Part shown: in pieces, positions 1-18,597 of the stretch
How the letters are laid out: each line of letters begins with the position of its first letter
How positions within the stretch are numbered: position 1 is the first letter of the stretch
Made by a program: the position numbers and the translations under genes
Notes under the pieces: generated by a model
Databases searched by the model: none
Seen by the model: the letters and a program-made list of their open reading frames with translations, nothing else
What the model was told of the DNA's origin: nothing
Origin: an uncultured virus (IMG/VR IMGVR_UViG_3300030060_002428)
Lineage: Duplodnaviria > Heunggongvirae > Uroviricota > Caudoviricetes > Crassvirales
Virus record (IMG/VR): IMGVR_UViG_3300030060_002428
Direction: 5' to 3' (one strand)
Length of the DNA stretch: 64,000 nt

Positions 1-170
1 TCTAGGTGTCGAGTTATCATACCATTACGAGTAAAGTCCCTACGGATTAGCATTGCTCGATAGTATTTAATATTAAACTTAATCTGCGAGATAGATATAT
101 GGTCATTGTTATTTGACCTACCACCTCGAACTAAGTTTAAGATATTGTATGCTATTTCATTCAGTGTCAT
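1..170 (-). CDS. crAss-type virion structural (ring/tail) protein, 5' part only; runs off the left edge
   Basis: My translation from ATG at 170: MTLNEIAYNILNLVRGGRSNNNDHISISQIKFNIKYYRAMLIRRDF..., open to the edge. It starts 3 nt after the previous stop and resembles crAss ring-protein N-termini. Not in the ORF track. Confidence 0.6.
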   Translation of the reverse strand, partial: MTLNEIAYNILNLVRGGRSNNNDHISISQIKFNIKYYRAMLIRRDFTRNGMITRHL

Positions 171-173
171 TTC

Positions 174-1304
174 TTATACGTTAGTTTGTAAATATCCTTC
201 ATAGCCACGTGCTTTACTCCATATATGTGCCTGTCCGGTTCTTTTAGCTTCATAACCCATCATCTTGTGCCAAGCGTCATTAGCACAGATAGATGGCAAA
301 AATCTTACTTTAACGCCTCTATATTCGTTTACCATTTCTTTATGTAAATGCCCACAGTGTACCTCTCTAAACTTTGCATTAGCAAATAGCATAGGTCTTT
401 CTGTAGCCATTATCAATGGCATTTCTGCTGGTTTTTCTTTGTCTCCGTGTGTATACATAATCATATTGACACCGTAGGTGTAATACTTTCTTGCATCAAC
501 ATTGTTATCTACATTCACGGTTTCGTCGTTTTTAAAGAATGCTCGCAAGTATTCCCCTGCATAAAACATTCTTTCGTAGTCATGGTTGCCTTGGACAACT
601 ACAACATCTACTGGAGCAGCCTCGCTCAGAAACTTAATTGCACGTACCATAAGATTACAGTAACCTACAAATGTTTCCTGCCAGTCTGCAGAATCCTGCT
701 GAGGTGTACCTTTCGTGGTAGCACGGGAATAACCCTCAGAGTTCATACCGTCATTACCTACCGGTAACACTATCCTCTCTATATTAAGGCCGTCTGCCTT
801 GGCTAAGAGATCTTTTACGGTATTCATATACTCCTCCTCAGCTTCGTCAAGAGTTTGTCCAGTATACTTACCATAGTGAATGTCGGGTAATGACACCTCG
901 TAAGCAACTGGGTCTTGAACTGTGTCGTAGCTTTTTTCAACCTTTGGGCTGTAAGACTCTAACAAAGAGATTAGCTCTTCTTTAGCTTTCTTCATTAAGT
1001 CGTCTTCTGTTTTTACTACGACAGAAAATCTATGTTCTCCATGCATATTCTGCCAAAACTTAACTGATGCTACATCTTCTTCATCAATCTCGTTTTCTTT
1101 TAAGAACTTTTTGAACTCACTTATCTCAGACTGGTTTACATTGTCTAAGTCAAAGTCAGCTCCTTTAGCTTCAATTCTTGCCTCCTTCAACGCATGTCGA
1201 CAAGTCTCTACACTACAATTTAGCCTTTCAGACAAGCGCTCAGCTCCCTCTTTCAGGTAACCTGGCCTATCTTTTAGAAATGCTTTTATTTCGTCTTTAG
1301 TCAT
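174..1304 (-). CDS. Calcineurin-like metallophosphoesterase with N-terminal HTH-like region
   Basis: Motifs PDIHYG, GNDGMN, GNHD, THGD, CGHLH. Confidence 0.85.
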   Translation of the reverse strand: MTKDEIKAFLKDRPGYLKEGAERLSERLNCSVETCRHALKEARIEAKGADFDLDNVNQSEISEFKKFLKENEIDEEDVASVKFWQNMHGEHRFSVVVKTEDDLMKKAKEELISLLESYSPKVEKSYDTVQDPVAYEVSLPDIHYGKYTGQTLDEAEEEYMNTVKDLLAKADGLNIERIVLPVGNDGMNSEGYSRATTKGTPQQDSADWQETFVGYCNLMVRAIKFLSEAAPVDVVVVQGNHDYERMFYAGEYLRAFFKNDETVNVDNNVDARKYYTYGVNMIMYTHGDKEKPAEMPLIMATERPMLFANAKFREVHCGHLHKEMVNEYRGVKVRFLPSICANDAWHKMMGYEAKRTGQAHIWSKARGYEGYLQTNV

Positions 1305-1322
1305 AATATATTGGTTTATAAA

Positions 1323-1724
1323 TTACTTTTTTAAATTTCTTCCTTTTTCAAATGATCTGCCTCCAAAGTATGCTCCAATTACAGTAATTAAAGTAAGCTG
1401 TAGAAGATCTGTCCACTTCTCTTCTACTTGGAAATTAACTGCTCCAGCGTCTATAAAAATCAAGAGCATTGTACATACTATTAAGAATACAAGAACCATA
1501 GGTCTTACATTCTTTGACAGCCAAGAGTCAGACTTAAGGTCTGCTTCCCATCGAGAGGTAATGTTCTTTTCCATCTCAATTTCGTAGTTAGCTATCAATT
1601 CTTTTATTTTTCTCTTAGCTTCAAGCTTTTCTTCCTTAGATGTGGTTAATCCATCTAAAGCGTTACCAACCCCTTCTACAAGGTCAGCTGCTCCTCCGCT
1701 AAATATTTTTCCTAATATACTCAT
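1323..1724 (-). CDS. Holin (3TM/GTA-holin-like)
   Basis: Family-typical RW.AD.KSDSWLSKNVRP followed by two hydrophobic helices and YFGGRSFEK; near the endolysin. Confidence 0.75.
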   Translation of the reverse strand: MSILGKIFSGGAADLVEGVGNALDGLTTSKEEKLEAKRKIKELIANYEIEMEKNITSRWEADLKSDSWLSKNVRPMVLVFLIVCTMLLIFIDAGAVNFQVEEKWTDLLQLTLITVIGAYFGGRSFEKGRNLKK

Positions 1725-1725
1725 A

Positions 1726-2187
1726 TTAATATTGTCTTTCTGTTGGCGGTGAGGCTGCAGAGGATTGTCTACCTCCTGCCTCTAAATACGCTGTGTTATA
1801 GTTTTTATCAATGTTATACGCTACAGCTACGTCTGCTGTTTCCGAGCTATTAGCAAGTTTAATTTTTAAAGTAGACTTGCGCTCATAGACACACGGGGAG
1901 CCGTCAAATATATCAATAGCAGCACCCGCAGGAATAACTAAACTTTTAATAAAGTAAAAAGTAAAAAATTCTTCAAACAACGGATCTCCTGTTAAATCAT
2001 ATTCTGCAGTAGTCGTATTTTTTCTTTCAAGATACACATCTACAGTAATATCTGAAGAGTGAGTATTTGCTATTCTAGCCTTACTAAGTGTAACTAAATC
2101 TAAGTATCTAGAATCAGTAGGATCTGGAACTCCACGTACTAGTGCTACCTCCCTTACACCGGTTATATTTCTGTAAGAATACTTCAT
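1726..2187 (-). CDS. Hypothetical virion/tail-associated protein
   Basis: Tightly packed in the late operon; beta-rich (IANTHSSDITVDVY, KSLVIPAG). Confidence 0.5.
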   Translation of the reverse strand: MKYSYRNITGVREVALVRGVPDPTDSRYLDLVTLSKARIANTHSSDITVDVYLERKNTTTAEYDLTGDPLFEEFFTFYFIKSLVIPAGAAIDIFDGSPCVYERKSTLKIKLANSSETADVAVAYNIDKNYNTAYLEAGGRQSSAASPPTERQY

Positions 2188-2486
2188 TACGTTAGTGTTA
2201 GTGTTGTTGATTTGCTTACTCCACCGTTTGTTACAGTCATCACTATACTGTATGATGCTGGTGTTTTTCCTTTAGCTGGAACTGTTATCATATCACCAAA
2301 AGCTATTGTTGTACTACTGCCTACGGTTATAGCTGCATCAATAGAATTTATTTTAGCGATCATAACGTCCACCTTATCATGCATAGCATTAATAAGCGTG
2401 TGCTCTGGTCCTCTATACTTTGACGGTGGTATAGCGTCGTCTTTTTTGTTGCTGCTTTTAGCAGAATCCATTGTTGATATAGCCAT
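2187..2486 (-). CDS. Hypothetical virion protein
   Basis: TAATG coupling to the next gene; late-operon context. Confidence 0.5.
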   Translation of the reverse strand: MAISTMDSAKSSNKKDDAIPPSKYRGPEHTLINAMHDKVDVMIAKINSIDAAITVGSSTTIAFGDMITVPAKGKTPASYSIVMTVTNGGVSKSTTLTLT

Positions 2487-2488
2487 AG

Positions 2489-3241
2489 TTATCCGATTGT
2501 TCCTGTTACGTGTAGATTAAAATACCCTGTCTGATTGTGGTTGTTGGTTTGTTTTTGAAGAAAAAACCAAATCCTGTCACGTGCGCTAAAATCTCCTCCG
2601 CTACTAATAGTAAAAAAAGCATTAAAAGTTTTGTCAGTATTAGTTGTTATAGTAGGTGTTGTAATCATATGTGTTAAGGTAACAGTGCTGGCGTTAGCGC
2701 TGGCTCCAGCTTTGTAAAACCTTAGTTGATATGTATCATTAGCATTAGTTTCCCCTTGTATATCAACTCTTGTTATAGCTCCATCTGCTGGTGCTATCCA
2801 AAAACAACCGTTTGCATTAGCTGCGTCTAGTGACGTTGGGTCTGTAGTAGACCTACTTAAAGCAGAGCCAGTACTACCTCTGTACTTGTACTCTGTATTA
2901 CTGTTGCTTATACTACCGTATGATGCGTTATGATTCCAAGTGTAGTGAGAACCAACATACTCCTTAATAGCGCCAGAAGACATAACGTGATCATCTTCAT
3001 CTTCAAATTCAGAACCTATATCTATATCAGCAACAGAGTGACCACCAATAGTTAAGCTACCAGCTGAACTACCACCTATATCGCTCAGCACTTCAGCGCC
3101 AGTTCTATAGCCAACCTTATCATTAGCGTCTACCACCAAAAACTTATCTGTATCAGCACCAGGATCGGCAAGATCTTCCAGGTAAACGTCATCACGAAAC
3201 CTAGAAATAAAACTCCATATATGTTGCCCAATCCACTTCAA
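2489..3241 (-). CDS. Putative tail fibre/spike-associated protein
   Basis: Ser/Thr/Gly-rich; DTDKFLVVD and RTGAEVLSDIG segments typical of phage fibre proteins; beta-sandwich-like C-terminus. Confidence 0.5.
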   Translation of the reverse strand: MKWIGQHIWSFISRFRDDVYLEDLADPGADTDKFLVVDANDKVGYRTGAEVLSDIGGSSAGSLTIGGHSVADIDIGSEFEDEDDHVMSSGAIKEYVGSHYTWNHNASYGSISNSNTEYKYRGSTGSALSRSTTDPTSLDAANANGCFWIAPADGAITRVDIQGETNANDTYQLRFYKAGASANASTVTLTHMITTPTITTNTDKTFNAFFTISSGGDFSARDRIWFFLQKQTNNHNQTGYFNLHVTGTIG

Positions 3242-3242
3242 A

Positions 3243-3698
3243 TTAGATCACTTTGTATTTAGTTCTACCTTTATCCTTGTACGCTAGCAAGCATCTGTTT
3301 CTGTTTTCTTCCTCAGATACATAGCTTATATGTACCCATGCAGGATTACTATCGTCCCCAAATTCCCATATAATCTGATCAAAGTCTAGATTCTCTTTTA
3401 TGTAGTTATACATCTCTGCATTTGTCTTATGCCCAAACGTATCATCTAAATCTACAGCTTGTCCTTTACAATGCTGTGACCTAGAACTACCGCCAATAGC
3501 CTTATTTAATTCTACTGACCTAAAGAAACTATTAATCTTGATAGGACCCCCTACCCAAGATCTCAGAGGCTCAAATACCTTTTCAGCTAATACTTTCATA
3601 TTAGCCAATTGCTCATCGTTAGGTATATTATCTATACCTCGACGTATTGCAGTATTACTATGCCTGCCTTCTTTATCGCTTATATGCTTACTTATCAT
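3243..3698 (-). CDS. Endolysin, peptidase M15A (Zn D-Ala-D-Ala carboxypeptidase-like)
   Basis: INSFFRS..LNKAIGGS..SQHCKGQAVD and WVHISY zinc-ligand motifs. Confidence 0.9.
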   Translation of the reverse strand: MISKHISDKEGRHSNTAIRRGIDNIPNDEQLANMKVLAEKVFEPLRSWVGGPIKINSFFRSVELNKAIGGSSRSQHCKGQAVDLDDTFGHKTNAEMYNYIKENLDFDQIIWEFGDDSNPAWVHISYVSEEENRNRCLLAYKDKGRTKYKVI

Positions 3699-3705
3699 AA
3701 GTTAA

Positions 3706-4095
3706 TTACCCTTTAGTAAAGTACGCGTATTCTGCTACAATAGTGCTTGCAGAAGCCTGTAACTGCACTCCTAAAGAGTGCCCACCAACTGGAAGAAAAC
3801 AAAACTCTCCAGCTGCTAGTTTACCAAATACCACATCACCTGTAAGCTCTACATTTAAAGTTGAAGTTACTGCAGCCCCGCTTGCATCAACTCCTGTATG
3901 CTTTACATAAACATAATATGTTTGGCCATCAGTAGCAGGCTGTATAATATTATTTGCACCAGTAGTAGAAACAGAAGTACGAGCTACTGGAATAGTAGGA
4001 TTTGTCGTTGTTAACACGTCAGATACACTAAGGTTTAAAGCATCGCTTGTAGCATTAGAACTAGACAATGTTAGTTTTGCTGTTAATGTTGCCAT
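3706..4095 (-). CDS. Hypothetical beta-rich virion protein
   Basis: MATLTAKLTLSS start, YVYVKHT and KLAAGEFCFLPV; late operon. Confidence 0.55.
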   Translation of the reverse strand: MATLTAKLTLSSSNATSDALNLSVSDVLTTTNPTIPVARTSVSTTGANNIIQPATDGQTYYVYVKHTGVDASGAAVTSTLNVELTGDVVFGKLAAGEFCFLPVGGHSLGVQLQASASTIVAEYAYFTKG

Positions 4096-4106
4096 TTTAT
4101 TTATTT

Positions 4107-6329
4107 TTAATTTTTAACAATCTTGTGATTTATTATAAAGTCATTGTATGAAACCCTCACATAATAGATTCCATTTGAATACTTGCTAAGATCTAACATA
4201 TTTACATTAGTTACATCTAAGACTTTTTTACCTGAGCTGTTATAAACTACAGCATCTACAGTAGAGTTTGCAGCAATATTAACTATGTCAGATGTAGGAT
4301 TAGGATAAAAACTTATCTTACCCTCCCTTAAATCGTCTACTGTCAATGGTCCGTCCCAACCGTCCTCACAGTAGTCATAAAGCGTTGAACACGTAGAGTC
4401 CCAAGAGTTGTCACAACAATAAGGATCTACAGATATAACCCACTCAAAGCACCCATTAGGCAAATAGTATATATCACCTACTGCACATCCTGCAGAGTAA
4501 TAACAAGACTCTATAGCTGTATTAGCTAGTGGATCATAGTTTACTGCCTGCGCGTCCGTGCAACCCTCCACAATTTCAATGCACGAATCATTGTCAGTGT
4601 TAGCATCAGAGTCATAATTAAAGGCATTAGGATCAGTGCACCCATATATATAAGGTATGCAACTGCCATTTTCTGTATTCGCTGTCGAGTCATAGTTAAA
4701 CTGTGTTGGGTCTGTGCAGCCAAAGATTATTGGAATACACTCTCCCGCATCTGTAGCTGCAGCGTTATAATTAAATGCTGTTGGGTCTTGACATCCTACT
4801 ACTTCTAACTCGTCACACACACTATCTCCGTCATAGTCATTGACACAGCTATTATTACAATCATAGTACTGCACAGGGTAGTTGCACTCTGAGTTAGTGT
4901 TAGCGTCTGCGTTGTAGTTACACGCTGTTTCATCTGTACATCCATATACATAAGGTATACAGCTATCGCCGCAATAAGGTGTAAAATGGTATACTTTCCA
5001 CTCTGGCGCACTAAACGGCTGTAAGGCTCCTTGGCCATTGTTTAGAAAAGGATTGCTACCCTCAGATAGTAAAGTGTCTCCAGCTTGGTTAATAGCATAT
5101 ACAGAGTTGTGTAATGTCTGGAATGCAAGTTCTTGCGCAGATGACTGCTGACCTCCGTCTTGGAAATAGTATATATCAACCTCTTCGTCTGAGTCAAGCA
5201 TTATGTCCCACGATTCTGAAAATATACCAGGACCTATAGTAAATAACCACTGCTGATCTCCTTGCTTCATACCAATACCAGACATACCCCATCCATCACC
5301 CGCATCATCTTCTAAAACAATTTGTATACTGCAAGGGCTAGTGTTATCTGATATAGTAGCTAAACTATCATAGTTCATAGCTTCAGGGTTTGTACATCCC
5401 CAAGTATGTAGAGTCATACACGTATCCTGTACTGTAGCGTCTGGGTTGTAATCTACATAGTCATCATCCATACACCCAATTACATCAGGTGCTGGTGGAC
5501 AAGGCTCAGTAAATATAGGTCCAGAGTATTCTGTAGTACCACCAAACTCTGTAAATGCTAAATCTTCTAGTTCCCATATAACGCTATCACAAGCAGTAAT
5601 AATACAACCGCCGTCTTGACCTCCGGATGCAGATCCGTTAAGCCCGTCGCCAAACTGATCTATTAATACTAGTTCAAAACCTAACGCTACGCAAAAGTCA
5701 TACGTGTAAGTTACTAGCTGGTCACCAAAGTCAAACTCACCAGGTATAACCTGTTCATATAACTGACCATTAGATAAGTTAACTATATTAAAACCTGTTT
5801 CGCCAGGCCATGTGTCAAGAGTTAACTGCATAGACACTTGCGTCTCAAGAGAATCACATTCTATAATTTCGCAACTACCATCATCTTGGTTAGCCCACGG
5901 ATTATAGTTATCTGCTGCCTCATTCATGCAGCCAGGTAGTACAGGTAGACAGGGCTCTAGCACAAACGGTATTGTATCTATAGCTTCAGCAAACTCGTAG
6001 TTAAACTCTTCAAGTCCACACGTGTTTGTTATCCCAAAGAAACCTTGTCCAAATGAACAGCATATGCCATCACCAAATGAATCGTACATAATAAACGCGT
6101 ACTCGCCCGCAGGTAAAAAGACCATTATGTTAGTTAGCGTGTTGTTTGCAAGTGGTGGACTTACTGCTACTGTATTGCTATCAGAATTAATTATTTCCCA
6201 TGATGATTCACCACCATAGTTATCTGTCTGCACGGTAACATTTAACCAACTAGCGTCATCAGGCTGCGCAACTGCACAACTAGCTACTAGCCAAAATATT
6301 ACTACAAGTATGTATCCTAACTTTTTCAT
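4107..6329 (-). CDS. Secreted Cys-rich repeat protein with C-terminal T9SS type-A sorting domain
   Basis: Signal peptide MKKLGYILVVIFWLVASCAVA-Q; 8 GC[TMQ][DN]xxxxNY repeats; C-terminus ISFYPNPTSDIVNI...LDLSKYSNGIYYVRV...HKIVKN matches the Por/T9SS type-A CTD. Confidence 0.85.
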   Translation of the reverse strand: MKKLGYILVVIFWLVASCAVAQPDDASWLNVTVQTDNYGGESSWEIINSDSNTVAVSPPLANNTLTNIMVFLPAGEYAFIMYDSFGDGICCSFGQGFFGITNTCGLEEFNYEFAEAIDTIPFVLEPCLPVLPGCMNEAADNYNPWANQDDGSCEIIECDSLETQVSMQLTLDTWPGETGFNIVNLSNGQLYEQVIPGEFDFGDQLVTYTYDFCVALGFELVLIDQFGDGLNGSASGGQDGGCIITACDSVIWELEDLAFTEFGGTTEYSGPIFTEPCPPAPDVIGCMDDDYVDYNPDATVQDTCMTLHTWGCTNPEAMNYDSLATISDNTSPCSIQIVLEDDAGDGWGMSGIGMKQGDQQWLFTIGPGIFSESWDIMLDSDEEVDIYYFQDGGQQSSAQELAFQTLHNSVYAINQAGDTLLSEGSNPFLNNGQGALQPFSAPEWKVYHFTPYCGDSCIPYVYGCTDETACNYNADANTNSECNYPVQYYDCNNSCVNDYDGDSVCDELEVVGCQDPTAFNYNAAATDAGECIPIIFGCTDPTQFNYDSTANTENGSCIPYIYGCTDPNAFNYDSDANTDNDSCIEIVEGCTDAQAVNYDPLANTAIESCYYSAGCAVGDIYYLPNGCFEWVISVDPYCCDNSWDSTCSTLYDYCEDGWDGPLTVDDLREGKISFYPNPTSDIVNIAANSTVDAVVYNSSGKKVLDVTNVNMLDLSKYSNGIYYVRVSYNDFIINHKIVKN

Positions 6330-6698
6330 TTAAAAATCGCTATAAATTATCTCATCAATTACTCCTTGCACATCTTTACGTGTAGCTTCCATCTGCATCA
6401 TTATGTTAGCTTGAAATCTTTCAACTTCTTTGCCATTAAATACTACAATAGTAGGTACTACTACAATATTGTAATCTGCTTGATAGGTGCCTTCGTCAAT
6501 GCTGACACTCATAACCTCACAGTCTGTAAGCTTACCTAAGTAATCCACACTGTTGGTTTCGTTCCAACTAGCATTGAACTGTACTACACATATGTCGCTG
6601 CCGCAAAGATTTTGACCTATAGCTGTTCCGCTTATAAACATAAATAGCATAACCAGCAAATATGTTAGCACTGTTCCAAAGTTCATTGAGTCTTCCAT
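6330..6698 (-). CDS. Exported thioredoxin-fold protein lacking CxxC
   Basis: Likely start ATG at 6698 (MEDSMNF). Signal peptide ends AIG-Q; VVQFNASWN replaces FxAxWCxxC; cis-Pro motif VVVPTIVVFNGKEVERF. Confidence 0.7.
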   Translation of the reverse strand: MEDSMNFGTVLTYLLVMLFMFISGTAIGQNLCGSDICVVQFNASWNETNSVDYLGKLTDCEVMSVSIDEGTYQADYNIVVVPTIVVFNGKEVERFQANIMMQMEATRKDVQGVIDEIIYSDF

Positions 6699-6699
6699 T

Positions 6700-6918
6700 T
6701 TACTTTTTATTAGCAAACTTCTCTACACCGCTAATTCCAAACGACCCCAAAACTACCCACACAAAAGAGTTGTATACAAATTCGTTAATTACTAAATCAT
6801 TACCTACGGCTCCAGATACAGTATCCACAAGCATCACTGCCACCATTATGGCAAATGCTACAAAGCCAACTATTGCTTTTTCGTTCCATTCGTTATTGTC
6901 TTTAAATATTTCAAACAT
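6700..6918 (-). CDS. Small two-TM membrane protein (holin-like)
   Basis: Two hydrophobic helices and a GSFGISGVEKF C-terminus. Confidence 0.6.
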   Translation of the reverse strand: MFEIFKDNNEWNEKAIVGFVAFAIMVAVMLVDTVSGAVGNDLVINEFVYNSFVWVVLGSFGISGVEKFANKK

Positions 6919-6922
6919 GTTA

Positions 6923-7204
6923 TTACAGATTATCTATTTTTTCTTCGATACGTTTCATATCGTCCTTAATTTCAGTTACATCTTCCTGAGTAGTCATAAT
7001 AGTTTGACGGATCAATTGATCTTTCATATCAAACTCCATACGAGTGACTTCTGAAGGTAGTGGTTCGGGCAGCTCTTTAGCTAAAGCTATGTCAGCTTGC
7101 AATGCAAACCACATGCCTATAAGAGCTGCTAGCCCTGCTACACCCATACCTATTGTCTTAAGGTCTAATGTTACTTTAGTATCTTCGCCTAGTTGCTTTG
7201 CCAT
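6923..7204 (-). CDS. Single-TM membrane protein with C-terminal coiled coil
   Basis: TM segment IGMGVAGLAALIGMWFAL; heptad-like EDVTEIKDDMKRIEEKIDNL. Confidence 0.6.
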   Translation of the reverse strand: MAKQLGEDTKVTLDLKTIGMGVAGLAALIGMWFALQADIALAKELPEPLPSEVTRMEFDMKDQLIRQTIMTTQEDVTEIKDDMKRIEEKIDNL

Positions 7205-7377
7205 TATACTTCAAATCCAAAGTTTAGTATCATAAACCTAAAACGTTTATTCTCACATCCTTTATCGCAAAGGAGGCACGCTTTCATTTCAAGTACAGTA
7301 ATCTTACCTAACCTAAAAGAAAAGTGGTACTTCTCTTTTTTATTGCCGGCACTCCAGCTGTTAATCCAATTTATCAT
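7204..7377 (-). CDS. Small hypothetical protein (57 aa, CxxCxxxC)
   Basis: My translation: MINWINSWSAGNKKEKYHFSFRLGKITVLEMKACLLCDKGCENKRFRFMILNFGFEV. It fills the gap exactly with overlapping start/stop at both ends. Confidence 0.6.
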   Translation of the reverse strand: MINWINSWSAGNKKEKYHFSFRLGKITVLEMKACLLCDKGCENKRFRFMILNFGFEV

Positions 7378-7751
7378 GATTTTTTTCTTTTGCCGCCATG
7401 GTATTCAACCGCATGGCCTTCTGTTATTAAAAGTTTATTAAGTGATACCATAGTAAAACTATCAGATTTATCTATCGTATCTACATAGATTTCACCTAGA
7501 ACCCTGCCGTATTTTCCAACTTCTTTTGATTCTAAAGTAAAAGTATCGTTCTCGTCAAGTATAGATTGTACCCTAGCCTTTGCAGCTAAGCCTCTCTCTT
7601 TCTCTTCAAGATCCCTAGTTCTAGATTCAGGAGTGTTTATTCCTGCAAACCTAACTCGTTTGTTAACACTTATGTCAAACCCAAGGTCTATGTGGACATC
7701 AATTGTGTCACCATCTATTACTCGATCTAATGTTGCTTTATAAGTATACAT
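7374..7751 (-). CDS. Thermonuclease (SNase-like) family nuclease
   Basis: RVIDGDTIDV, RVRFAGINTPESR, GKYGRVLG, NKLLITEGHA. Confidence 0.9.
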   Translation of the reverse strand: MYTYKATLDRVIDGDTIDVHIDLGFDISVNKRVRFAGINTPESRTRDLEEKERGLAAKARVQSILDENDTFTLESKEVGKYGRVLGEIYVDTIDKSDSFTMVSLNKLLITEGHAVEYHGGKRKKS

Positions 7752-7752
7752 G

Positions 7753-8796
7753 TTAAAATATTACGTAGTTAGCTCCAACAGTAAAGTCATGCCACTCTCT
7801 GTTCCAGTATTTGTTGTATTTCCCCTCTAAAAATACACCTAAATTTTTATTAAGCCTCCATCCAAAGATAAGGCCTGCACTATAATCAAGCCACTGCTGC
7901 CCATTTGTAGTCTCAAAGTATGAGTACTCGCCACCTGTATTTAGGTGGTATGGAATTACACTTACCCAATTGTGCAGCCAAAAGTCATCTGTAAAATGGT
8001 AGTAATCATACCCTACAACTGCAGAGTAGTTCCATTGATCTGGTAGCTCGCTTCTTTTCCTTGCTACGTAATCATCTATAACTTCTGGTATTACTACCTC
8101 TGTCCAAACATCTGAACTTTGTGCACACAACTCACCGTTTGGGTCATAATACTCACTAGCCTGAACATCTACAGTGTAACCTTCTTGTATTGCTAGCTGT
8201 GTGTAGTGTATATTATTATTATCTAGTAGCCATTCTGCTAACGCATCATACCCATAAGGTTCTGATATACGCTGTACTAAACCAATGTTAAAACTAAACT
8301 TATCGTTTACATTCAATCTAAATCTTTCAGATCCCTCAAAGTATCTAACATCTGCAAAGCCATCTTGTAAGTACTCAGCTTTAGCAATCCAGTTTTTTGC
8401 TACATAACGCAAGAAATAGTCTTGGTCCAAAAAGTTTCTACCCTGCTGTCTACGCCAATCAGCCTCAAATAAGAACTCAAACCCTTTTACCTTACCTATG
8501 TTAGCCGCGTCGCTATAAGATCGCTCTGTGCCGTTGTAAAACGTGTTAGCGCGGTTCTCATACCCAAACCTTGCAATCTTACGTACTCCTACAGTAAAAG
8601 AGTAATCAAACGGAGTTTCTACAATATCTGTTTGCAGTCCGTTTGTTACAGAGTAAAGATTGTCGTCAGCTATAGAATTACCACCGCTAAAAGCTGCATA
8701 AAAAGTAGAAAACTTAAATGCCTTTTTCAGCGTTTGCGCTTCTACTGTAAACACACAGCAAAAAATACTTAGTATTATTAAAATTATTTTTCTCAT
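7753..8796 (-). CDS. Putative outer-membrane beta-barrel protein
   Basis: Signal peptide ending VEA-Q; many amphipathic aromatic-rich strands; C-terminal BAM-like signal ...FTVGANYVIF. Confidence 0.7.
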   Translation of the reverse strand: MRKIILIILSIFCCVFTVEAQTLKKAFKFSTFYAAFSGGNSIADDNLYSVTNGLQTDIVETPFDYSFTVGVRKIARFGYENRANTFYNGTERSYSDAANIGKVKGFEFLFEADWRRQQGRNFLDQDYFLRYVAKNWIAKAEYLQDGFADVRYFEGSERFRLNVNDKFSFNIGLVQRISEPYGYDALAEWLLDNNNIHYTQLAIQEGYTVDVQASEYYDPNGELCAQSSDVWTEVVIPEVIDDYVARKRSELPDQWNYSAVVGYDYYHFTDDFWLHNWVSVIPYHLNTGGEYSYFETTNGQQWLDYSAGLIFGWRLNKNLGVFLEGKYNKYWNREWHDFTVGANYVIF

Positions 8797-9536
8797 TAAT
8801 CTTTGTATTGTTTATATCTATTTCCTATAGCTTGTAGAGAAGCTGTTGTTGCAGGAGGTACATCAGATCCAGTGTAAATTCTAACATCAAGTAGTTCAGC
8901 GTTTAGAGGCTCTGTTTCTCCACTGTGAGAACCTATTTCTGAAAGATCACAAAACTGAGAAAACCCTCCATCTACAGCAGTTTGACCTATTAAATCTCCA
9001 TCTATGTTATAATAATAATGGGCATTAGAAACACCTGATCCAGGCATATAAAGTATTAAAACTTCTACATCACTTCCAAAAGTATAGTTTGTACTAGAGT
9101 TAGCAGTACTATTAATAGCTGTTGCTACCTCTGCTCTTTTAGCTGTAGCAGGTTTCCATTTTACACTAGTGCCTCCAGATCCTATTTGTAAGTATCCGTC
9201 AGGATTTCCGCTCGTTCCTGCAAATCCTAATAAAGTGTTATCTGATGAAGTATCAAGATCTACAAATGCAATAACAAACATCCAAGCATCTGTAGTAACT
9301 AAAGAGTGAGCAGTGCTTAAATCTAAGTGGTCATTAGTGCCATCAAAGTTTAAAGATGTTGCAAAACCGGCAAGCTTAGCATTATTTCCTAGTCCTTTAT
9401 GTTGAGGCTGAAAATTACTATTAGATTGATCCCATGTTCTACTACCTACACTACCTTTAGAAGAGATACCTGTTCTTTTAGTATCCGTGCTGATAGTCGG
9501 ATCAAATGCTGATAATCTTACTTTTGCTTTTCCCAT
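8796..9536 (-). CDS. LamG/ConA-like domain fibre protein
   Basis: SLNFDGTNDHL and LNAELLDVRIY are LamG-like hallmarks. Confidence 0.6.
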   Translation of the reverse strand: MGKAKVRLSAFDPTISTDTKRTGISSKGSVGSRTWDQSNSNFQPQHKGLGNNAKLAGFATSLNFDGTNDHLDLSTAHSLVTTDAWMFVIAFVDLDTSSDNTLLGFAGTSGNPDGYLQIGSGGTSVKWKPATAKRAEVATAINSTANSSTNYTFGSDVEVLILYMPGSGVSNAHYYYNIDGDLIGQTAVDGGFSQFCDLSEIGSHSGETEPLNAELLDVRIYTGSDVPPATTASLQAIGNRYKQYKD

Positions 9537-10063
9537 TATGCTGCGTCTATTGATACGTTATCTATAACTACTACATTCGAGTCTTCAAAGCCAGGAATAC
9601 TTATAAATACATCAAAGTCATATATTTCTCCTGACCCTGCAGCATCTAAGTTTGCATCAGATCCTCCTGAGTCCAAGAATGTGGCTACTGTAAGATCGAC
9701 TGCTTCATAATCATCTGCACTGCTAATCGTTATATTACTAGTTGCTGTAGAAAGAAAATAAAAGACTTGACCGCTACCAGTATACTGAAAAATATTAAAG
9801 GTTTTAGTTCCAATTCTGTGACTATCACTTCCAAGAGTATCATGGTTCTCAACTGTTAAAGTTGCAGTGCCATTTACTTTAGCTCCAGTAGATTGTGTAA
9901 TTCCATTTAGTAATGCAGTTTTAGTATCAATGTTAGTAACTTTAATAACTACAGCAACATTTTCATCATCAGTATCTACTATAGAAATTTCTGCTAGAGA
10001 TAATTTTACCAGCTGTTGCACTGTTTGACCTATTACGCATGTATTTATTCCTAGCTCTAACAT
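9536..10063 (-). CDS. Putative fibre/virion protein (MLELG N-terminus)
   Basis: TAATG-coupled; shares MLELG start with 10302..11084. Confidence 0.5.
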   Translation of the reverse strand: MLELGINTCVIGQTVQQLVKLSLAEISIVDTDDENVAVVIKVTNIDTKTALLNGITQSTGAKVNGTATLTVENHDTLGSDSHRIGTKTFNIFQYTGSGQVFYFLSTATSNITISSADDYEAVDLTVATFLDSGGSDANLDAAGSGEIYDFDVFISIPGFEDSNVVVIDNVSIDAA

Positions 10064-10302
10064 TATGCACTTGTATCTAATTCTTTATACCACTCTCCAC
10101 TTTCGTCTTTTAGTATAGCTTTAATTTCTGACTCAGTGTATGTTGTCTTGCCGTTAAGAAACGATGGTTGATCTCCTTTGTATTTTACAAAAGTTTTTGT
10201 GCCATCATTATTATACCGTAACGTATTAGCGCTTGTTTCGAGAACTTCGCTAAAGTTTACTGAGCTAACTTCATTAGCATTTATGATTACATATGTTTTC
10301 AT
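10063..10302 (-). CDS. Small protein next to the LamG fibre gene (possible fibre chaperone)
   Basis: TAATG-coupled on both sides; LETSANTLRYNNDGTKTFVKY. Confidence 0.5.
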   Translation of the reverse strand: MKTYVIINANEVSSVNFSEVLETSANTLRYNNDGTKTFVKYKGDQPSFLNGKTTYTESEIKAILKDESGEWYKELDTSA

Positions 10303-11084
10303 TAGCTTGGTACTTCAGTGTCAAATGATGCATCATTCCCTAGACTGCCATTACTAGTTCCAGCAGCATCATCCGTATTATTATCAAATTTATAGTAAAC
10401 ATCTAGTTTACCAGCACTTTGGTAGTTGCCTGAGTTTGCAGTGTAATCATGGGGCGGCTTTTCGGCTAACGCCAATAGTTGCGCTGCTGATAAATCCTCC
10501 TGCCAAAATGCCCACTGATCCATGTGCCCATCTAAATCGTAATCTAAACCATTCCAATTACCAATGTGTAAATTAACATCAAGTTCAATATTTGACAAGG
10601 CTTGCGCTGTAAAAGTATTTGAAAGAACTACTAATGATTGAGCTACTCCATTTTTGTATATAACAAAAGTACCTGAACTTGTGTCAGATCCTCCTGGAGT
10701 CCAAGTTACGCTCCACATGTTCCATTCGTCAGAGGCTCCCGCACTAAAAACTCCCACAAGCGCGAATTTAGCAGTAGTGTCATCATTTCTACCCCTTATA
10801 ACAAAATAAAGAGCTGTACCTTGAAAATAAAGACCTATTAATCCGTTTGCTACACCACCTGTATTCTGGGTACCAAACAAAGTTTGAGGTCCTGAAACAT
10901 TATCTATGTTGACCCAGGCGCTAAACGTAAAGCCAGTAGTCTCACAGTTACGTAGTAGGGCTTGGAAATTGTTATTCGTGTCAAAGAAATCATCAGTACC
11001 GTCAAGTAGCAATGAATGCGTATTTACATACCCTTGTTCACTAGGCTGAACAGCCACAGATATTCCAAACCCTAACTCAAGCAT
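10302..11084 (-). CDS. LamG/ConA-like lectin domain protein (receptor-binding candidate)
   Basis: SLLLDGTDDF, FTFSAWVN, WNMWSVTW, IYKNGV, LHIG, LDGHMDQWAFW, YYKFDNN. Confidence 0.8.
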   Translation of the reverse strand: MLELGFGISVAVQPSEQGYVNTHSLLLDGTDDFFDTNNNFQALLRNCETTGFTFSAWVNIDNVSGPQTLFGTQNTGGVANGLIGLYFQGTALYFVIRGRNDDTTAKFALVGVFSAGASDEWNMWSVTWTPGGSDTSSGTFVIYKNGVAQSLVVLSNTFTAQALSNIELDVNLHIGNWNGLDYDLDGHMDQWAFWQEDLSAAQLLALAEKPPHDYTANSGNYQSAGKLDVYYKFDNNTDDAAGTSNGSLGNDASFDTEVPS

Positions 11085-11602
11085 TATGCTGGATTACCTT
11101 TGTATAATACGTAAAGTGCACTACTGTCTCCAGTAATTGCTGTTACATCTCCGTAGAGTATAGTACCTGCAGGTATTTCTTGACCTGTAACAGTTGTACT
11201 ACTACTTATAGTAAGAGTAGTAGGAGTACACGCTTTTAAAAACTGAACTGCAAAGTATGTTCCAGAACTTTCACTCTGAGCTGCATTACCGTTAATCATT
11301 ACACATCCGTTGTTACCAAATTTAAGTAAATCATTTGCACCAGCTGATACAACGTCTACTTGCATTTCAGTGCCGCTAATAGCATTATCTAAAATTTCTA
11401 CTGCAGTTTTAATATTTGTAAGTAGCACTTCCATTGCAGCTAAATCTACATTTCCTGCTGTTACAAGTGTTTCTAAAGCCTCTAAGTTTACATCAACGTC
11501 ACCTAAGTTAACCTCTAAATCATCTGTATTTTTTACAATCTCATTTAGCAGAATCTCGGTGTCAGTTCTGTAAGTTTTTGATTTATCATAATTTGTTGCC
11601 AT
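11084..11602 (-). CDS. Putative virion fibre protein with coiled-coil N-half
   Basis: Heptad LEALETLV..LAAMEVLLTNIK; C-terminal IPAGTILYGDVTAI. Confidence 0.5.
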   Translation of the reverse strand: MATNYDKSKTYRTDTEILLNEIVKNTDDLEVNLGDVDVNLEALETLVTAGNVDLAAMEVLLTNIKTAVEILDNAISGTEMQVDVVSAGANDLLKFGNNGCVMINGNAAQSESSGTYFAVQFLKACTPTTLTISSSTTVTGQEIPAGTILYGDVTAITGDSSALYVLYKGNPA

Positions 11603-12006
11603 TATGCTATAATTTTATCAATATTAATAATTTGCTCACCTGAAATATTTTCTGGTAAACAGTCTTCTGGAATCTCTAAAAGTTCTAGTTCAACTTCTTC
11701 TTCCATTAATTTCTCTAGCTCTGCTAACTGATCTTTACGATCTTGAATTAGCTTAGCATTCTTTTTTTCTAATGCCTTTACTTCTTTCTCGTTTTTGTCG
11801 TTCATCAGCTGATTCATCTGAACAGAAAGAGCTACAAACTCGTCAGATGGTTTACTAGCATTTTCAAGGTAGTCTAGTTCTTTCTGTATTGTTCTAACAT
11901 TCTTAGAAACTAACAATCCAAACTTAACTCCTTTAAGTTGTTGCACCGCAGCAAGCCCGTTGAATAACTCAACAAACTCGCTATTTTTCATTTTCATTTT
12001 AGTCAT
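11602..12006 (-). CDS. Helical hypothetical protein (possible fibre assembly chaperone)
   Basis: Charged, helical; directly downstream of the fibre gene. Confidence 0.45.
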   Translation of the reverse strand: MTKMKMKNSEFVELFNGLAAVQQLKGVKFGLLVSKNVRTIQKELDYLENASKPSDEFVALSVQMNQLMNDKNEKEVKALEKKNAKLIQDRKDQLAELEKLMEEEVELELLEIPEDCLPENISGEQIINIDKIIA

Positions 12007-12026
12007 ATCTATATAATTGATTAATA

Positions 12027-13550
12027 TTATCCTATTCTGTACATGGTTACTGCAGTAGCTCCAGTTCGTCTAATTCTGAATCTTCCTACACCGACAGATA
12101 CTGCGTTGGCTACATCGTCTTGAGCAAATACTTTCATCATTCCAACAAGTGTTACTCCTGTTCCTCCTGTTATTGTTACATCAACACCTGATGAAGATGT
12201 TAAATTTATTATACTAAAGTCAAATGAGTCTCCATCTGCTGTTAGTGATAAGCCTGAAACTAAATTAGATGCAGTATCTGTAGCCTTACTTCTGCCTGAA
12301 GTTGGTGTACACTGTACAATACCTGTTAAAATATTTGCTGCAGATATTGCAGTAGTCCCGTCATCTGTAGTAGCCGGAGCACCTTGGTAAGTAATAATAC
12401 TTGGTGTAGCTGTAGCTCTAGCATAAATTGGCTTTGCAGATACAAACAAATTACCTAATACAACTGACACATCCTGCGAGCTATCTATTGTCACTGCGTT
12501 TTTCGTAGATCCTCCTGCGTCATATGTATGGAAGTTGATGCTACCTGGAGTTCCTGACGCCGCGTCTCCTGCGCTAAGCTTTAGTGATCCTCCCGCGCCT
12601 GAGCCTGTACCTGCACCTGCAAATAATTCCAAATCACCTCCAGTCATATTGCCTCCACCTGCTGTTGCTGCGTAGATTCTTAGATCTGCTCCGTTAGTTC
12701 CAGATGCTGAGTTAGTACCTACAATGTCGTAGTTAGATTGATATGCAGCAGTGTTACCTATTGTAATTGCTGTACTAGTTGAGCCTTGTACATTTAACTG
12801 ACCTGTTGCCTCTCCAGTTGTAAGAGTCGATCCTGAGTCATTTAGAATTACTTTACCATTAGTGTGTACATACAGACCTCTGTCAGATCCATCGTCACTA
12901 ATGTAGTTAGTATTAAGATCAATATTATAGCTACCTGTATCTAGATTAGCTGCTAAGCTTGACAGGGTAGCATTAAGAGTTAGCACTCCTGCTACAGTAG
13001 CGTCAAGTGCAAGATTAGTTCCAGCATCAATAGATGCCCATGCGGGTATGCCTGTAGTAGAGTTGTGTACAAGTATTTGAGCGTTAGCTGATGGAGTTGC
13101 TGATGCAATTACATTGTCTGCACTAGCGTAAAGAACTGATCCTTTTGTTATTGTAGATAGCCCTGTACCGCCATTAGCAACTGCACATTCTCCTGTAACA
13201 CTGCCTGTAAAATCTACTCCTGTCACAAAACCAGATGTAGCGTTGTTACACAGACTAAGGTCAATACCTGCTTCTAGCACCGTCAATACTAAGTTACTAG
13301 TATCCGTAGCTACAGTTAAAAGCCCAGTGTCTCCAGACTTAATGCCTTTAAAGACAATTTGATTTTTATTTGTTAAAGTTGCGCTATTGTATAAAGTTTC
13401 AGAGCTAGTTCCTGCTGTAGATACAGCTGGAAATAATGACTGAAGTTGAAACTTTTTAGCGGCTTTAGTACTAGAGTTAGCTACAAGTAAGTAATCTGTA
13501 GTTGCTACACTCGCTTTAGCTAACGTTGATAATGTTGTTATTTCTGCCAT
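12027..13550 (-). CDS. Tail/head fibre protein
   Basis: Gly/Ala/Thr-rich; VANGGTG motif, LAANLDTGSYNI, GGDLELFAGAGTGSGAGGSLKLSAG triple-beta-like repeats. Confidence 0.7.
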   Translation of the reverse strand: MAEITTLSTLAKASVATTDYLLVANSSTKAAKKFQLQSLFPAVSTAGTSSETLYNSATLTNKNQIVFKGIKSGDTGLLTVATDTSNLVLTVLEAGIDLSLCNNATSGFVTGVDFTGSVTGECAVANGGTGLSTITKGSVLYASADNVIASATPSANAQILVHNSTTGIPAWASIDAGTNLALDATVAGVLTLNATLSSLAANLDTGSYNIDLNTNYISDDGSDRGLYVHTNGKVILNDSGSTLTTGEATGQLNVQGSTSTAITIGNTAAYQSNYDIVGTNSASGTNGADLRIYAATAGGGNMTGGDLELFAGAGTGSGAGGSLKLSAGDAASGTPGSINFHTYDAGGSTKNAVTIDSSQDVSVVLGNLFVSAKPIYARATATPSIITYQGAPATTDDGTTAISAANILTGIVQCTPTSGRSKATDTASNLVSGLSLTADGDSFDFSIINLTSSSGVDVTITGGTGVTLVGMMKVFAQDDVANAVSVGVGRFRIRRTGATAVTMYRIG

Positions 13551-13561
13551 TTTTTTATTTA

Positions 13562-16500
13562 TTAAGTATCATCGCTAGTAAAAGATGATCCATCATTCTC
13601 TATAGGAGCGCCTCCTATTGTTAAAGGGTTATTTGTCTGAATACTTTCCATTGCTTCAGTTACATACGGAGGAATACCGCATTCTCTACAATACTTCTGT
13701 GCAAAGCTAGTAAATTTCTGTAAATAGTTTGTATTATCAGAGTAAGTTACTGCATCCACACACTTTTGCCATCCTGAAATAGGGTTATCTGGAAAAGATA
13801 CAGTAGTGCTAGGATCTAAATTTAATCCTATTGTAGTGACAGCTTGGTAGATAATATCGTGATGTTTTACAACAGTACCTACAGTATACACAGCTGTGTC
13901 ACTTGGGTTCCAGTATAGGCTGCCACTGCCTTCCCATTTTTCCTCACACCTCGATCCTGGGCTATCTGGAGTCTCTGAGTCTGCACAGTTGTATATGCAT
14001 GGCAAGCCTTTCTTGCTTAATAGTTCAGAGATAATTATAATCTTCCAAGCCTCCATCGTACTGCAATCGTCCGATAAGCCTGAAATTAGTTTTGTGTAGA
14101 ACCTGTTACCTACATTAGCTAAACATCTTTCTACGTCTCCTATTACAGAATTTATCCTGTTAGGAATACATACTGCAGATACAAAGTCTACACAGTTAAT
14201 AGGGCATGGAGGATAGTTACAACTACCATCTTCCATATTTGCACTAGCGTTAAAGTTAAGTGCATTTGGATCTGTACAACCAGATACAGGATCTGGTACA
14301 CAGCAATCTACTGAGTAAGATCCGTCAGGGCATAGACATTCTCCTTCACAAGGATTACATGGGTACGTACATGTACCATCATCAACAGTTGCTAAGCTAT
14401 TATAGTTGTCAGCATCTGGGTCCGTACATCCATATACCTGCGGCTCTGGAAGACCCTCACAAACGTCCATACCTATTGTTACGGGCGCCTGTATTACTCC
14501 TGGACAAAATGCAGCTAATATACCGCCGCCTTGCTGGCCTACTGACCACCCAGGAGCAGCCACCATTACAGCTCCTTGATCTGCAAGAGCAGCTGCAGTA
14601 TATATCACCTGTACAACGTATGCCCCATTAGGCAAATCACTAAAGGTAAATGAAGTTGTAGTGTCAGGATCTATAAGAAGATTTGCATCTATAAGATTAG
14701 TATCTTGGTTCCATGTTGTAACAAAATCTACAGCACTTACAAACCCTGGAGCAAAGTTTGCCTGCATTTGGGTTTGACCAAAATACGGAAATGTAGGAGG
14801 AGGGCTTAGCCAAGTAAGTATTACTGCTGCATATAAACCGTTTGGATTTTGAATTGTCAAACCAGAAACACTAGGTAAGTTAACTACTACAGAGCCTGTA
14901 TTATCTGGCTCACATAAACCAGTTGTTTCATTATATGTAGATGCTGTATTAGTAATAACTTGATTGTTCATTATGTAATGAACATTACTATTTGCAAAAT
15001 CATGAATAGTTGAACAATCATCTAAAGTTCCACTGCCGTCGTATATACAACTTCCGTCTTCAATAGTTGCTGCAGGATTAAAGTTAGCAGCCTGCATGTC
15101 TGTACATCCTAGAATATCTAAATTAATGTATTCACATGTACCATCATCTAGGGTAGCATTTACATCATAGTTTGTAGCAGCCGGATCTGTACAACCAGGT
15201 ACTTCTGGAGGTGGCGGATATTGACATGATCCGTCATCAGTGTTTGCATCTGGGTTATAATTAGAAGCCTCTGGGTCAGTACAACCTGTAATTATTGTAT
15301 TTACATCTCCACTACAATCTACATTTTGACAGTGCTCTACAGTGTTAAAATAGCCGTCTCCTGAGTTTGACCAAACTGATTGATAAACAGATCCCCATAC
15401 TCCAGGCTCACCATATGCAATAACTGTCTCAACTTCAGTAATATCTCCATGCTCAAGTATGTATCCACATGGAACTGACATAAGAGGTGTTCTATCACCT
15501 GTCTGTAATACTCCATTTTCATCTACAGTAACTTCGCCATCTGAAAATAACAAGTTTCTTAAACCAAAAGTGTAAGGACCTCCAATAAATCCTTCAGCAG
15601 TCTGAGTTATTATAAACTGCTCACCGTCTGCAAACTTAATTCTAAAAAATGGGCAAATAAGGTTTAGACCGGTAATAATATTGTTTAACTCCGATCCCGC
15701 ATATGTTCCAAAGTCCTCATAGTTATATGTACCTTCTTCAAAATTAACCCATATTGGAAGAGTTACGCCGTTACTAGCTGTAGGAGTGTACTCTAGATTT
15801 TGAGAAGTTGACCATCCACTATAAATGCTTTCTTCTCCTCCTCCTAGAGCAGCAGCAGCTACGGCAGGATAAAAAATAGGACTTAAGCCACAGAATATAT
15901 TCTCAAAAACATATGCAGTTGCTGCAACAGTACCGGGCCCTAAAGGTCCTGAAGGTAATCCTGATGTGCCAATAACTTCATATCCGTTATTAAAAACTGC
16001 AAATATTTCTGGATTGTTTCCTAACCAATCATCCTCAAGAACTGTAACACCGCAAAGTGTAGGCTCTATAGAAAATGGCGTGTTAAACGCAGATGGATTA
16101 CACTCAGGAGTTATACAATCGTCAGCTGGTACAGTGACATCTGCATTATAGTTTACAGCGCCTGGCTGATCACAACCTTTTAATCCAATCTTAAATTCTT
16201 TAACTGCATAGCACTCTTCATACTCCTTAACAGCACTTCCATGAGTATATGACAATATAATTGCATATCTGCCGTGCGCAAGTCCTGTTAGTGATAAAAA
16301 TCCTCCTGAAGCGTTTGTGCTAGTAGATATTAATGAAACACCTGAAGCGCCAGTAATGTTTGTTTTAACGTTGTCGCCATCTCCTTGGCTTCCAATCTCT
16401 AAAGTAAGAGGTATTTTGTATAATTTATATTCATACGGATTAGCATCTGCAGATCCTGAGAACCATTGTCCTGCACTAAACTCATTCCAAGTTGCTTGGT

Positions 16501-18007: not shown

Positions 18008-18018
18008 AGTCTAGCCTA

Positions 18019-18531: not shown

Positions 18532-18542
18532 GATTAATATTT

Positions 18543-18584
18543 AAAAAAAGACCGGTAGGGGGCCAATTCCCCCTACTAGTCTTT
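18543..18584 (-). terminator. Rho-independent terminator after the capsid-accessory genes
   Basis: Minus strand GAAAGACTAGTAGGGGG-AATTGG-CCCCCTACCGGTCTTTTTTT. Confidence 0.8.
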
Positions 18585-18597
18585 CTACGTTATTATA

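Follow-up and report, generated by a model that had tools for sequence, protein, structure and literature searches.

Little is known of the way in which Bacteroidota phages break through the outer membrane of their hosts, and some of these phages have no recognisable spanin. In these hosts, a type-A C-terminal domain (CTD) is a sorting route through the Por/Spr type IX secretion system (T9SS) to the cell surface, and PorP/SprF proteins are the barrel partners of type-B cargo. Kongari et al. (2018, PMC6139136) recognised no spanin in about 13% of the phages that infect Gram-negative bacteria, with Bacteroides and Croceibacter phages in this fraction, and raised as an unexamined possibility the statement 'an OMP could act as an o-spanin' (OMP, outer-membrane protein). 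Type-A T9SS cargo has been reported from 'Cryophage' (Bellas et al. 2020, PMC7468147), as have open reading frames (ORFs) with T9SS sorting domains in crAss-like contigs (de Jonge et al. 2019, PMC6949934); in the parts of these papers drawn on here, the genes belong to Bacteroidota phages, vary among relatives, were proposed to use host secretion, and encode endoglucanase, GH39 or PA14 enzymes or BACON-repeat proteins as isolated variable genes. Here, we analysed a 64,000-nucleotide stretch (the window) of a 76,882-bp contig from an uncultured virus (IMG/VR record IMGVR_UViG_3300030060_002428), in which positions 4107-8796 encode a Cys-rich repeat protein with a type-A CTD (the cargo) and a trio consisting of a predicted outer-membrane beta-barrel, a putative bitopic inner-membrane protein of 93 aa (TM93), and an exported thioredoxin-like protein without CxxC (TRX). 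Unlike the published cargo, this one is tied to the trio and to lysis genes. A preliminary description of the locus knew of no comparable phage system, which went too far for the cargo, a part already known in kind. It holds for the trio, which is uncharacterised and was found neither in any family library nor in the literature searched (subscription journals and recent preprints being outside its coverage).

The unit conserved among relatives was a core of four genes, encoding a large exported Cys-rich protein, the barrel, TM93, and TRX. We examined 168 related loci overall, including the best 80 (L001-L080; barrel 60-98% identity) of 461 IMG/VR relatives confirmed by tblastn (group 1) and 80 (L081-L160) of 96 confirmed relatives reached via a 33%-identical barrel homologue (group 2). 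Co-conservation was counted with hidden Markov models (HMMs) from the first set, using the loci in which 3 kb or more flanked the barrel on either side (51 in group 1 and 57 in group 2). The barrel, TM93, and TRX occurred together in 51/51 group-1 and 51/57 group-2 loci, the T9SS cargo family was present in 51/51 of the former, and an alternative exported protein (cargo2) in 57/57 of the latter; a large Cys-rich protein with a signal peptide thus adjoined in 108/108 well-flanked loci. Of the seven-gene cassette in the preliminary description, the trio and a large exported Cys-rich partner, of one family or the other, formed the conserved part; the nuclease gene (SNase) and two small genes (TM72 and p57) were sporadic. 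The usual order was (holin)-cargo-(p57)-barrel-TM93-TRX-(p129 copies) in group 1 and barrel-cargo2-(TM72)-TM93-TRX-(SNase, p57, p129)-endolysin-holin in group 2. A third order, barrel-SNase-p57-TM93-TM72-TRX-cargo, was shared by the window and its 98%-identical relative L001, and one further locus (L163) had a fourth. The core genes stay together through these rearrangements, and the co-conservation in relatives that the preliminary description had proposed as a check was borne out.

Adjacent core genes were often tightly coupled, with the start of a gene falling within ±30 nt of the preceding stop. Such coupling was seen between barrel and TM93 in 61/73 cases, between TM93 and TRX in 58/73 (group 1) and 55/65 (group 2), between barrel and cargo2 in 62/75, and between TRX and a peptidase M15 endolysin in 26/26. 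Genes of holin or endolysin type lay within 6 kb in 50/57 group-2 and 21/51 group-1 loci, and in group 1 the holin gene often stood immediately before the cargo. The corresponding genes of the window are an M15 endolysin (3243-3698, - strand; PF08291 2e-14, phrog_894 1.2e-30) and a holin with one strong transmembrane window (1323-1724, -; phrog_3427 1.7e-27). At another locus (L164), the trio is followed by a gene for a 293-aa protein whose N-terminus looks, by eye and with no family search run, like a peptidoglycan-binding domain of a lysin. Between the window and the group-1 relative L074, identity was 71% for the terminase large subunit (TerL), 75% for TM93, 60% for the barrel, 52% for TRX, 40% for the cargo, and 37% for the holin. 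On these values, TM93 is as conserved as TerL, and conservation is core-like.

The barrel gene (7753-8796, -) encodes a 347-aa protein of a phage-only family, which is predicted to be exported and inserted by the beta-barrel assembly machinery (BAM) as an outer-membrane beta-barrel, in agreement with the preliminary description. Besides a signal peptide, it has a predicted structure of 12 strands (pLDDT 76) with alternating hydrophobic and polar faces, conserved charged residues on the polar, lumen side, and a hydrophobic last residue in 157/160 relatives (F or Y in 90). Two features, an extended and highly conserved turn on the periplasmic side (residues 74-104) and an insert of ~75 residues (179-253), distinguish it from Tsx, KdgM/NanC, autotransporter translocators, LpxR, and OMPLA, to whose families it does not belong. 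Its best fold matches include autotransporter translocators and FapF, with PorV (8gl6) at Foldseek rank 34 and Tsx among generic small-barrel similarities at 6-13% identity. In the barrel alignment, 0/33 members matched PorP_SprF or any OMP Pfam family. The locus resembles the PorV (8GL6) and PorP/SprF systems in that CTD cargo is encoded beside a small outer-membrane barrel, with a type-B CHU_C protein nearby in L074; it differs in that the barrel model has 12 strands rather than 14, profile searches gave no match to the PorP_SprF or PorV family, and the barrel is equally conserved where the cargo is without a detectable CTD. Two further similarities are leads only, namely the cyanophage OMP family PF24653 among the nearest named ESM clusters (0.93) and weak SH3_5 matches in 7/33 members (best 5.7e-4, ~168-207, in the modelled extracellular insert). 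We also considered an outward-facing Ser/His lipid-hydrolase site of the OMPLA/PagL kind and rejected it, as S258, H275, and the charged residues lie on lumen-facing strand faces.

TM93 (6923-7204, -) has, judging by hydropathy and alignment, a short N-terminal tail, a single transmembrane window (residues 17-42), a linker rich in Pro, and a charged, presumably helical domain at the C-terminus with a conserved E-F-x-M-K-D motif, and it contains no Cys. Its identity was 75-98% across group 1. Database searches returned at least 8000 TM93 clusters at E ≤ 1e-3, none of those listed having a functional name or a Pfam domain. We compared four marine metagenome runs from four studies (X1, X2, X4, and X13; the search had listed 20 marine or metagenome runs from 12 studies, none of them of RNA), and in all four the summed contig depth of the bin covering TM93 (6939-7205) was 10-20x that of its neighbours, an excess to be expected if many co-occurring phages carry near-identical TM93 DNA. 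Among its relatives, one protein of 204 aa on a 104,790-bp contig contains two TM93-like units (P0395), and another of 144 aa has its periplasmic E-F-D-M-K-D motif doubled (P0272). Fusions of TM93 with TRX (5/14 'longer' hits) were not accepted as evidence of binding, as they were single-contig clusters on short contigs that kept an internal signal peptide; read-through or faulty gene calling is their probable origin.

TRX is a 128-aa protein as annotated (6330-6716, -; translation more likely begins with the ATG at 6698 or the one at 6686). Its family profile matched thioredoxins in the PDB at 5.2e-6, and all 60 chains listed were thioredoxins or derived from them. The stretch F-N-A-S-W/F-N-x-x-N aligns with the W-C-G-x-C motif, F-N-x-x-N falling at the position of WCGPC, with N42 and N45 invariant, and two conserved Cys lie elsewhere than at the CxxC position. 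This supports its description, already given in the preliminary account, as a thioredoxin fold without CxxC, or 'dead thioredoxin'. The claim of fold rests on the profile because the AlphaFold2 (AF2) model was poor (pLDDT 51). Although the TRX profile is akin to thioredoxin PF00085, and two distant relatives (P0398 and P0400) carry a precomputed PF00085 label, TRX differs from that family in having N-x-x-N for CxxC, in being exported, and in occurring only in the phage module. No consistent lipobox was found at TRX N-termini. On one phage-like contig (L164), the dead TRX is accompanied by an ordinary thioredoxin of 85 aa in which W-C-G-P-C is intact (12264-12521, +; TRX-family HMM 2e-4).

The cargo gene (4107-6329, -) encodes 740 aa, including 38 Cys, arranged as a signal peptide, three D-x-x-G-D-G modules, repeats of ~28 aa of the form GCTDP...NY...DDGSC, and the CTD. 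The signal peptide was called by hydropathy only (h-region Kyte-Doolittle value 3.3, followed by A-Q). The CTD, which the preliminary description had recognised, lies at the extreme C-terminus (residues 675-740 of 740, about nt 4110-4307) and exceeded the cut-offs of both TIGR04183 (39 bits, cut-off 23) and PF18962 (37.8 bits, cut-off 27). A cargo profile built from 15 relatives also matched solved T9SS CTDs (7pzj 1.8e-7, 8glk_D 1.6e-5, and 8glj_D 1.4e-3) and, more weakly, gingipain CTDs, and PF18962 was present in 116/120 of the listed cargo homologues. The cargo was the fastest-evolving core member, with 30-99% identity and domain shuffling. Residues 22-460 gave no score of at least 0.9 in the ESM Atlas. 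The full repeat unit, G-C-T-D-P-x-A-x-N-Y...D-D-G-S-C (~28 residues with two Cys), matched no family in the copy of Pfam searched. It recurs in a 1481-aa protein encoded among the tail and fibre genes (13562-18007, -; no signal peptide and no family match), with 46% BLASTP identity over 91 aa (E 3e-16), so that one phage carries it both in a protein for export and in a presumed component of the virion.

In group 2, the place directly after the barrel is taken by cargo of another family, with a signal peptide, a Cys-rich domain, and acidic repeats of the D-T-I-V-E-T-E-Y type. A Pfam search showed no CTD in it, and T9SS use is consequently not constant for the module. The C-terminus of this protein was considered as a cryptic type-A CTD and rejected, as hhalign against the cargo profile matched the signal peptide only. 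Its acidic, beta-strand-like repeats vary in number, and the conserved tail (...Y-N-L-x-G-Q-x-I...G-L-Y-I-E-N-G-K-I-K-Y) resembles the last strands of a CTD, albeit matching no model. A weak motif resembling LDL-receptor-A was also seen (e.g., L101 7056-7775; best 4.2e-4, below cut-off). The acidic repeats further resemble those of a 412-aa protein that ends in a type-B CHU_C domain and is encoded beside the trio of L074 (11704-12942, -). This second exported protein combines a signal peptide, the GCTDP repeat, D-T-x-repeats, and CHU_C (3.8e-15); some phages of the clade therefore carry both type-A and type-B cargo.

Export signals were concentrated on the core proteins. Using a simple, crude hydropathy rule on distinct N-termini, signal-peptide-like N-termini were called in 130/130 barrel, 112/114 TRX, 39/43 cargo, and 67/67 group-2 cargo sequences, and in none of those of the neighbouring p129 (0/87) and SNase (0/15). 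A Gln within 11 residues of the hydrophobic region was present in 117/130 barrel, 59/112 TRX, 39/39 cargo, and 67/67 group-2 cargo sequences. This pattern agrees with the Q-rule that PMC10367356 sets out for substrates of signal peptidase I in Bacteroidetes. Sec-type signals are thus found on three or four proteins of the locus, and the designation of the whole cassette as host-exported proteins fails for SNase and p57 because neither has a signal peptide or a membrane segment.

From the signals, folds, and co-conservation reported above, we infer a function as follows. We favour, tentatively and at somewhat less than an even chance, a reading in which the trio forms an envelope-spanning complex that, together with a variable secreted partner, acts when lysis reaches the outer membrane. 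Late in infection, the phage would make four envelope-aimed proteins. The cargo would cross the inner membrane by Sec, its type-A CTD would hand it to the host T9SS, and it would therefore end on or outside the cell. Host BAM would insert the 12-stranded barrel in the outer membrane, and TM93 would reside in the inner membrane with its charged helical domain in the periplasm. Because its CxxC is lost, TRX would be not a redox enzyme but a periplasmic adaptor or chaperone. The complex of barrel, TM93, and TRX would bridge the inner membrane, periplasm, and outer membrane and, after holin and endolysin, would breach the outer membrane as the last step of lysis, taking the job of a two-component spanin with the barrel in place of the lambda lipoprotein Rz1. 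The Cys-rich cargo may be a fast-evolving surface partner, with receptor masking, adhesion, or help in outer-membrane rupture as possible roles.

This reading is suggested because the trio provides one component per envelope layer, TM93 appears to have the general build of an i-spanin, and in one lineage the genes adjoin both endolysin and holin, in another the holin. It is also suggested because no canonical spanin was found in the 64-kb window, and because Kongari et al. report both spanin-less phages and a possible OMP o-spanin. The only clear lipoprotein ORF of the window (35746-35958) has neither a transmembrane partner nor a C-terminal transmembrane segment. It lies between gene blocks (35537-35958, +), where a 70-aa coiled-coil-like protein without a transmembrane segment overlaps the 70-aa lipoprotein ORF by 4 nt; the latter has a lipobox (L-M-A-S-C) and a basic, Cys-containing mature part, and the two are no canonical spanin pair because the transmembrane segment is missing. 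L074 has a similar small lipoprotein ORF (5833-6027, -). Compared with two-component spanins such as lambda Rz/Rz1, TM93 may be alike in joining an N-terminal transmembrane segment to a presumably helical periplasmic domain, and its gene lies next to that of an outer-membrane partner and, in many relatives, next to endolysin and holin; the module would likewise carry out the outer-membrane step. In contrast, the outer-membrane partner is a 12-stranded barrel, a third, thioredoxin-like component is present, TM93 is Cys-free and short, conservation is much higher than usual for spanins, and no sequence relationship exists between the two.

Several observations weigh against a lysis role. The trio includes no outer-membrane lipoprotein, the candidate for that position being the 347-aa barrel, and TM93 is without Cys for intermolecular disulfides and has a periplasmic part of only ~55 residues. 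Lysis proteins usually evolve fast, whereas the conservation of TM93 and the barrel is that of core genes and far exceeds that of the holin (37%). Such a role also gives no reason for a large, variable, and ever-present cargo. The window places 3.6 kb between the module and the endolysin and 6 kb between the module and the holin, fibre-like and other genes being interposed, and no lysis gene was seen within 6 kb in 30/51 group-1 loci. Lysis or tail genes also have accessory envelope genes as neighbours, lambda bor and lom for example, and synteny alone is for that reason weak. According to the part of a survey consulted here (PMC12596118), Bacteroidetes phages use unimolecular spanins only; no unimolecular spanin gene was seen in the window.

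The main rival is a dedicated surface-display system, in which the cargo is the point of the module and masks receptors, blocks superinfection, or alters adhesion, with TRX as a cargo holdase resembling the redox-inactive domains of protein disulfide isomerases, TM93 as the inner-membrane partner, and the barrel as an anchor or pore akin to a PorP/SprF or PorV partner, an autotransporter, or the FapF translocator. We regard display as only a little less probable than the lysis reading. The abutment of a large Cys-rich signal-peptide protein on the barrel in all 108 well-flanked loci would be expected of such a system, and so would the rapid evolution and domain shuffling of the cargo, its replacement by another family in group 2 and by a third, CHU_C-bearing form in L074, the repeat in common with a presumed tail protein, and barrel fold matches to autotransporter translocators, FapF, and, further down, PorV. 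Roles in superinfection or competition were also proposed for phage T9SS cargo in the part of Bellas et al. (2020, PMC7468147) cited here. Display is, however, difficult to reconcile with a barrel alignment that gave no match to PorP_SprF or any OMP Pfam family, with group-2 cargo devoid of a detectable CTD, and with a universality and TerL-like conservation that accessory exclusion genes rarely have; the genes moreover run in the late or structural direction of transcription next to lysis genes, and PADLOC matched the nuclease only (6.5e-7). The preliminary description favoured remodelling of the infected-cell envelope through Sec, BAM, and T9SS, an idea to which display comes close, and while the export, CTD, and barrel signals stand, the link to lysis genes points at least equally to lysis. 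The trio and its obligatory exported Cys-rich partner could also be a hitherto unrecognised three-tier envelope machine of marine Bacteroidota phages, neither a spanin nor a T9SS accessory, which we hold to be less probable than not by a clear measure. As a phage-built conduit or anchor from inner to outer membrane, it would open or remodel the outer membrane at release via host Sec, BAM, and, in some lineages, T9SS.

Two other explanations appear considerably less probable. The barrel could be a Tsx- or KdgM-like outer-membrane pore importing nucleosides or other solutes, maybe together with the SNase, given the conserved charged residues that line its lumen, the neighbouring cyanophage OMP cluster (a lead only), and an SNase gene directly after the barrel gene in the window. 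We consider this improbable, as the fold similarity among small barrels is generic (8-12% identity), most relatives lack the SNase, which carries no signal peptide, and the obligatory TM93, TRX, and cargo partners and the link to lysis would stay unexplained. Least probable of all, to the point of being very remote, is that no phage envelope function exists, the proteins being virion parts misread as exported or the locus a chimera of host DNA or assembly. The cargo repeat does occur in a presumed tail protein, and the module does lie among fibre-like genes, but signal-peptide-like N-termini are conserved in nearly all barrel, TRX, and cargo sequences, and the same genes recur in the 168 loci. 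Among 185,579 species genomes, there were only 8 matching loci, all on contigs of metagenome-assembled genomes (MAGs) of mutually inconsistent taxa (including Parvibaculum, Nitrosopelagicus, Rickettsiales, Flavobacteriales, Maricaulis, and Woesearchaeota), the pattern expected of mis-binned phage contigs; the trio is confined to viral-type contigs. GC content was uniform (0.37-0.40), and contigs matching the region were present in all four marine runs, with those of X1 and X2 covering all 30 bins. Contigs bridged the junctions between fibre gene and barrel (X1 record 7 and X2 record 22), between SNase and barrel (X2 record 20), and between cargo, TRX, and TM72 (X4 record 28), as well as the stretch from endolysin to cargo (X2 record 18 and X4 record 23, with a variant p129 between); the junction of p57 and SNase was bridged by 24 nt only in the listed pieces. 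Coverage by four runs and the bridging of most junctions argue against the chimeric host insertion that the preliminary description had envisaged as a possible artefact.

Around the core, the remaining genes of the locus form a pool that recurs in the same neighbourhood. As first described, the module comprises seven contiguous ORFs, all on the - strand and tightly packed, with intergenic spacing of -17 to +4 nt, which fits translational coupling. They lie between fibre genes, including a fibre-like gene with a Laminin_G_3 domain (10302-11084) upstream of the module, and the lysis genes downstream; the upstream fibre-like genes (8796-13550) were present in 0-5 of 80 loci. The SNase (7374-7751, -; 125 aa) was correctly identified from the outset (PF00565 1.4e-10, 42 bits against a cut-off of 21; phrog_452 2.3e-39) and occurred in 3/80 group-1 loci by tblastn and 12/57 well-flanked group-2 loci. 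The p57 gene (7204-7377, -; 57 aa) occurred in 40/80 loci of either group. Its product, which had been counted as an exported Cys peptide, has no signal peptide or transmembrane segment, and its cysteines are in a variable insert absent from some members of the family, such that this assignment is withdrawn. TM72 (6700-6918, -; 72 aa) is a small membrane protein by hydropathy, having a charged C-terminus and two hydrophobic segments, of which one is clear and the other weaker, and is holin-like in size only; hydrophobic segments in TM72 and TM93 bear out the two small membrane proteins noted earlier. TM72 was found in 2/80 group-1 loci (tblastn) and 33/57 well-flanked group-2 loci, and had no family match in the libraries searched. 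The p129 gene (3706-4095, -; 129 aa), whose product is without an export signal, belongs to a family with a conserved N-terminus (M-A-T-L-T) that in relatives is often represented by 1-4 tandem, divergent copies after TRX. In PHROGs at E ≤ 1, TM72, TM93, p57, TRX, barrel, and p129 gave only weak unnamed matches (best 0.0013).

The window is from an uncultured, distant marine crAss-like phage, as indicated by its crAss-type major capsid protein (MCP; phrog_11589 2.2e-87), portal (phrog_6547 1.4e-121), and TerL (phrog_6681 1e-131), and this phage almost certainly infects a member of the Bacteroidota. By tblastn, the MCP matched crAss-like phages best, at 30-32% identity (140 of 50,697 deposited phage records, all <60%), and among the same records there was no megablast match to window positions 1-20000 and no tblastn match to the barrel or cargo. 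Genes are arranged in two divergent blocks, with GC skew flipping near 35 kb, and a family-A DNA polymerase, helicases, and primase are also encoded. Proteins resembling rIIA (907 aa, phrog_612 4.2e-21) and rIIB (390 aa, phrog_609 9.8e-9) were seen at 48703-52693 (+) of this crAss-like genome. Two giant ORFs at 55500-64000 (-), one of 1480 aa and the other of at least 1335 aa, are nearly without family matches (one matched phrog_16227, a virion structural protein, at 2.2e-6) and may be counterparts of the giant virion proteins found in crAss-like phages. Scans of positions 1-14000 found 40 promoter-like sites against 45.2 expected, with models that do not cover Bacteroidota promoters, and 7 terminator-like sites against 6.4 expected, which is not above chance.

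The module is abundant, with 461 and 96 IMG/VR stretches for the two barrel groups and at least 8000 TM93 clusters. Given that many TM93 clusters in the ocean, a three-tier machine, if true, would be among the commonest uncharacterised phage-host interfaces in the sea. If the system serves display, lytic phages would routinely redecorate the surface of infected cells via the secretion machinery of their hosts. If instead the trio is the end-game of lysis, its barrel would be the first barrel-type o-spanin. Marine Flavobacteriia are key degraders of algal carbon, and the lysis reading, if true, would provide a handle on their viral lysis.

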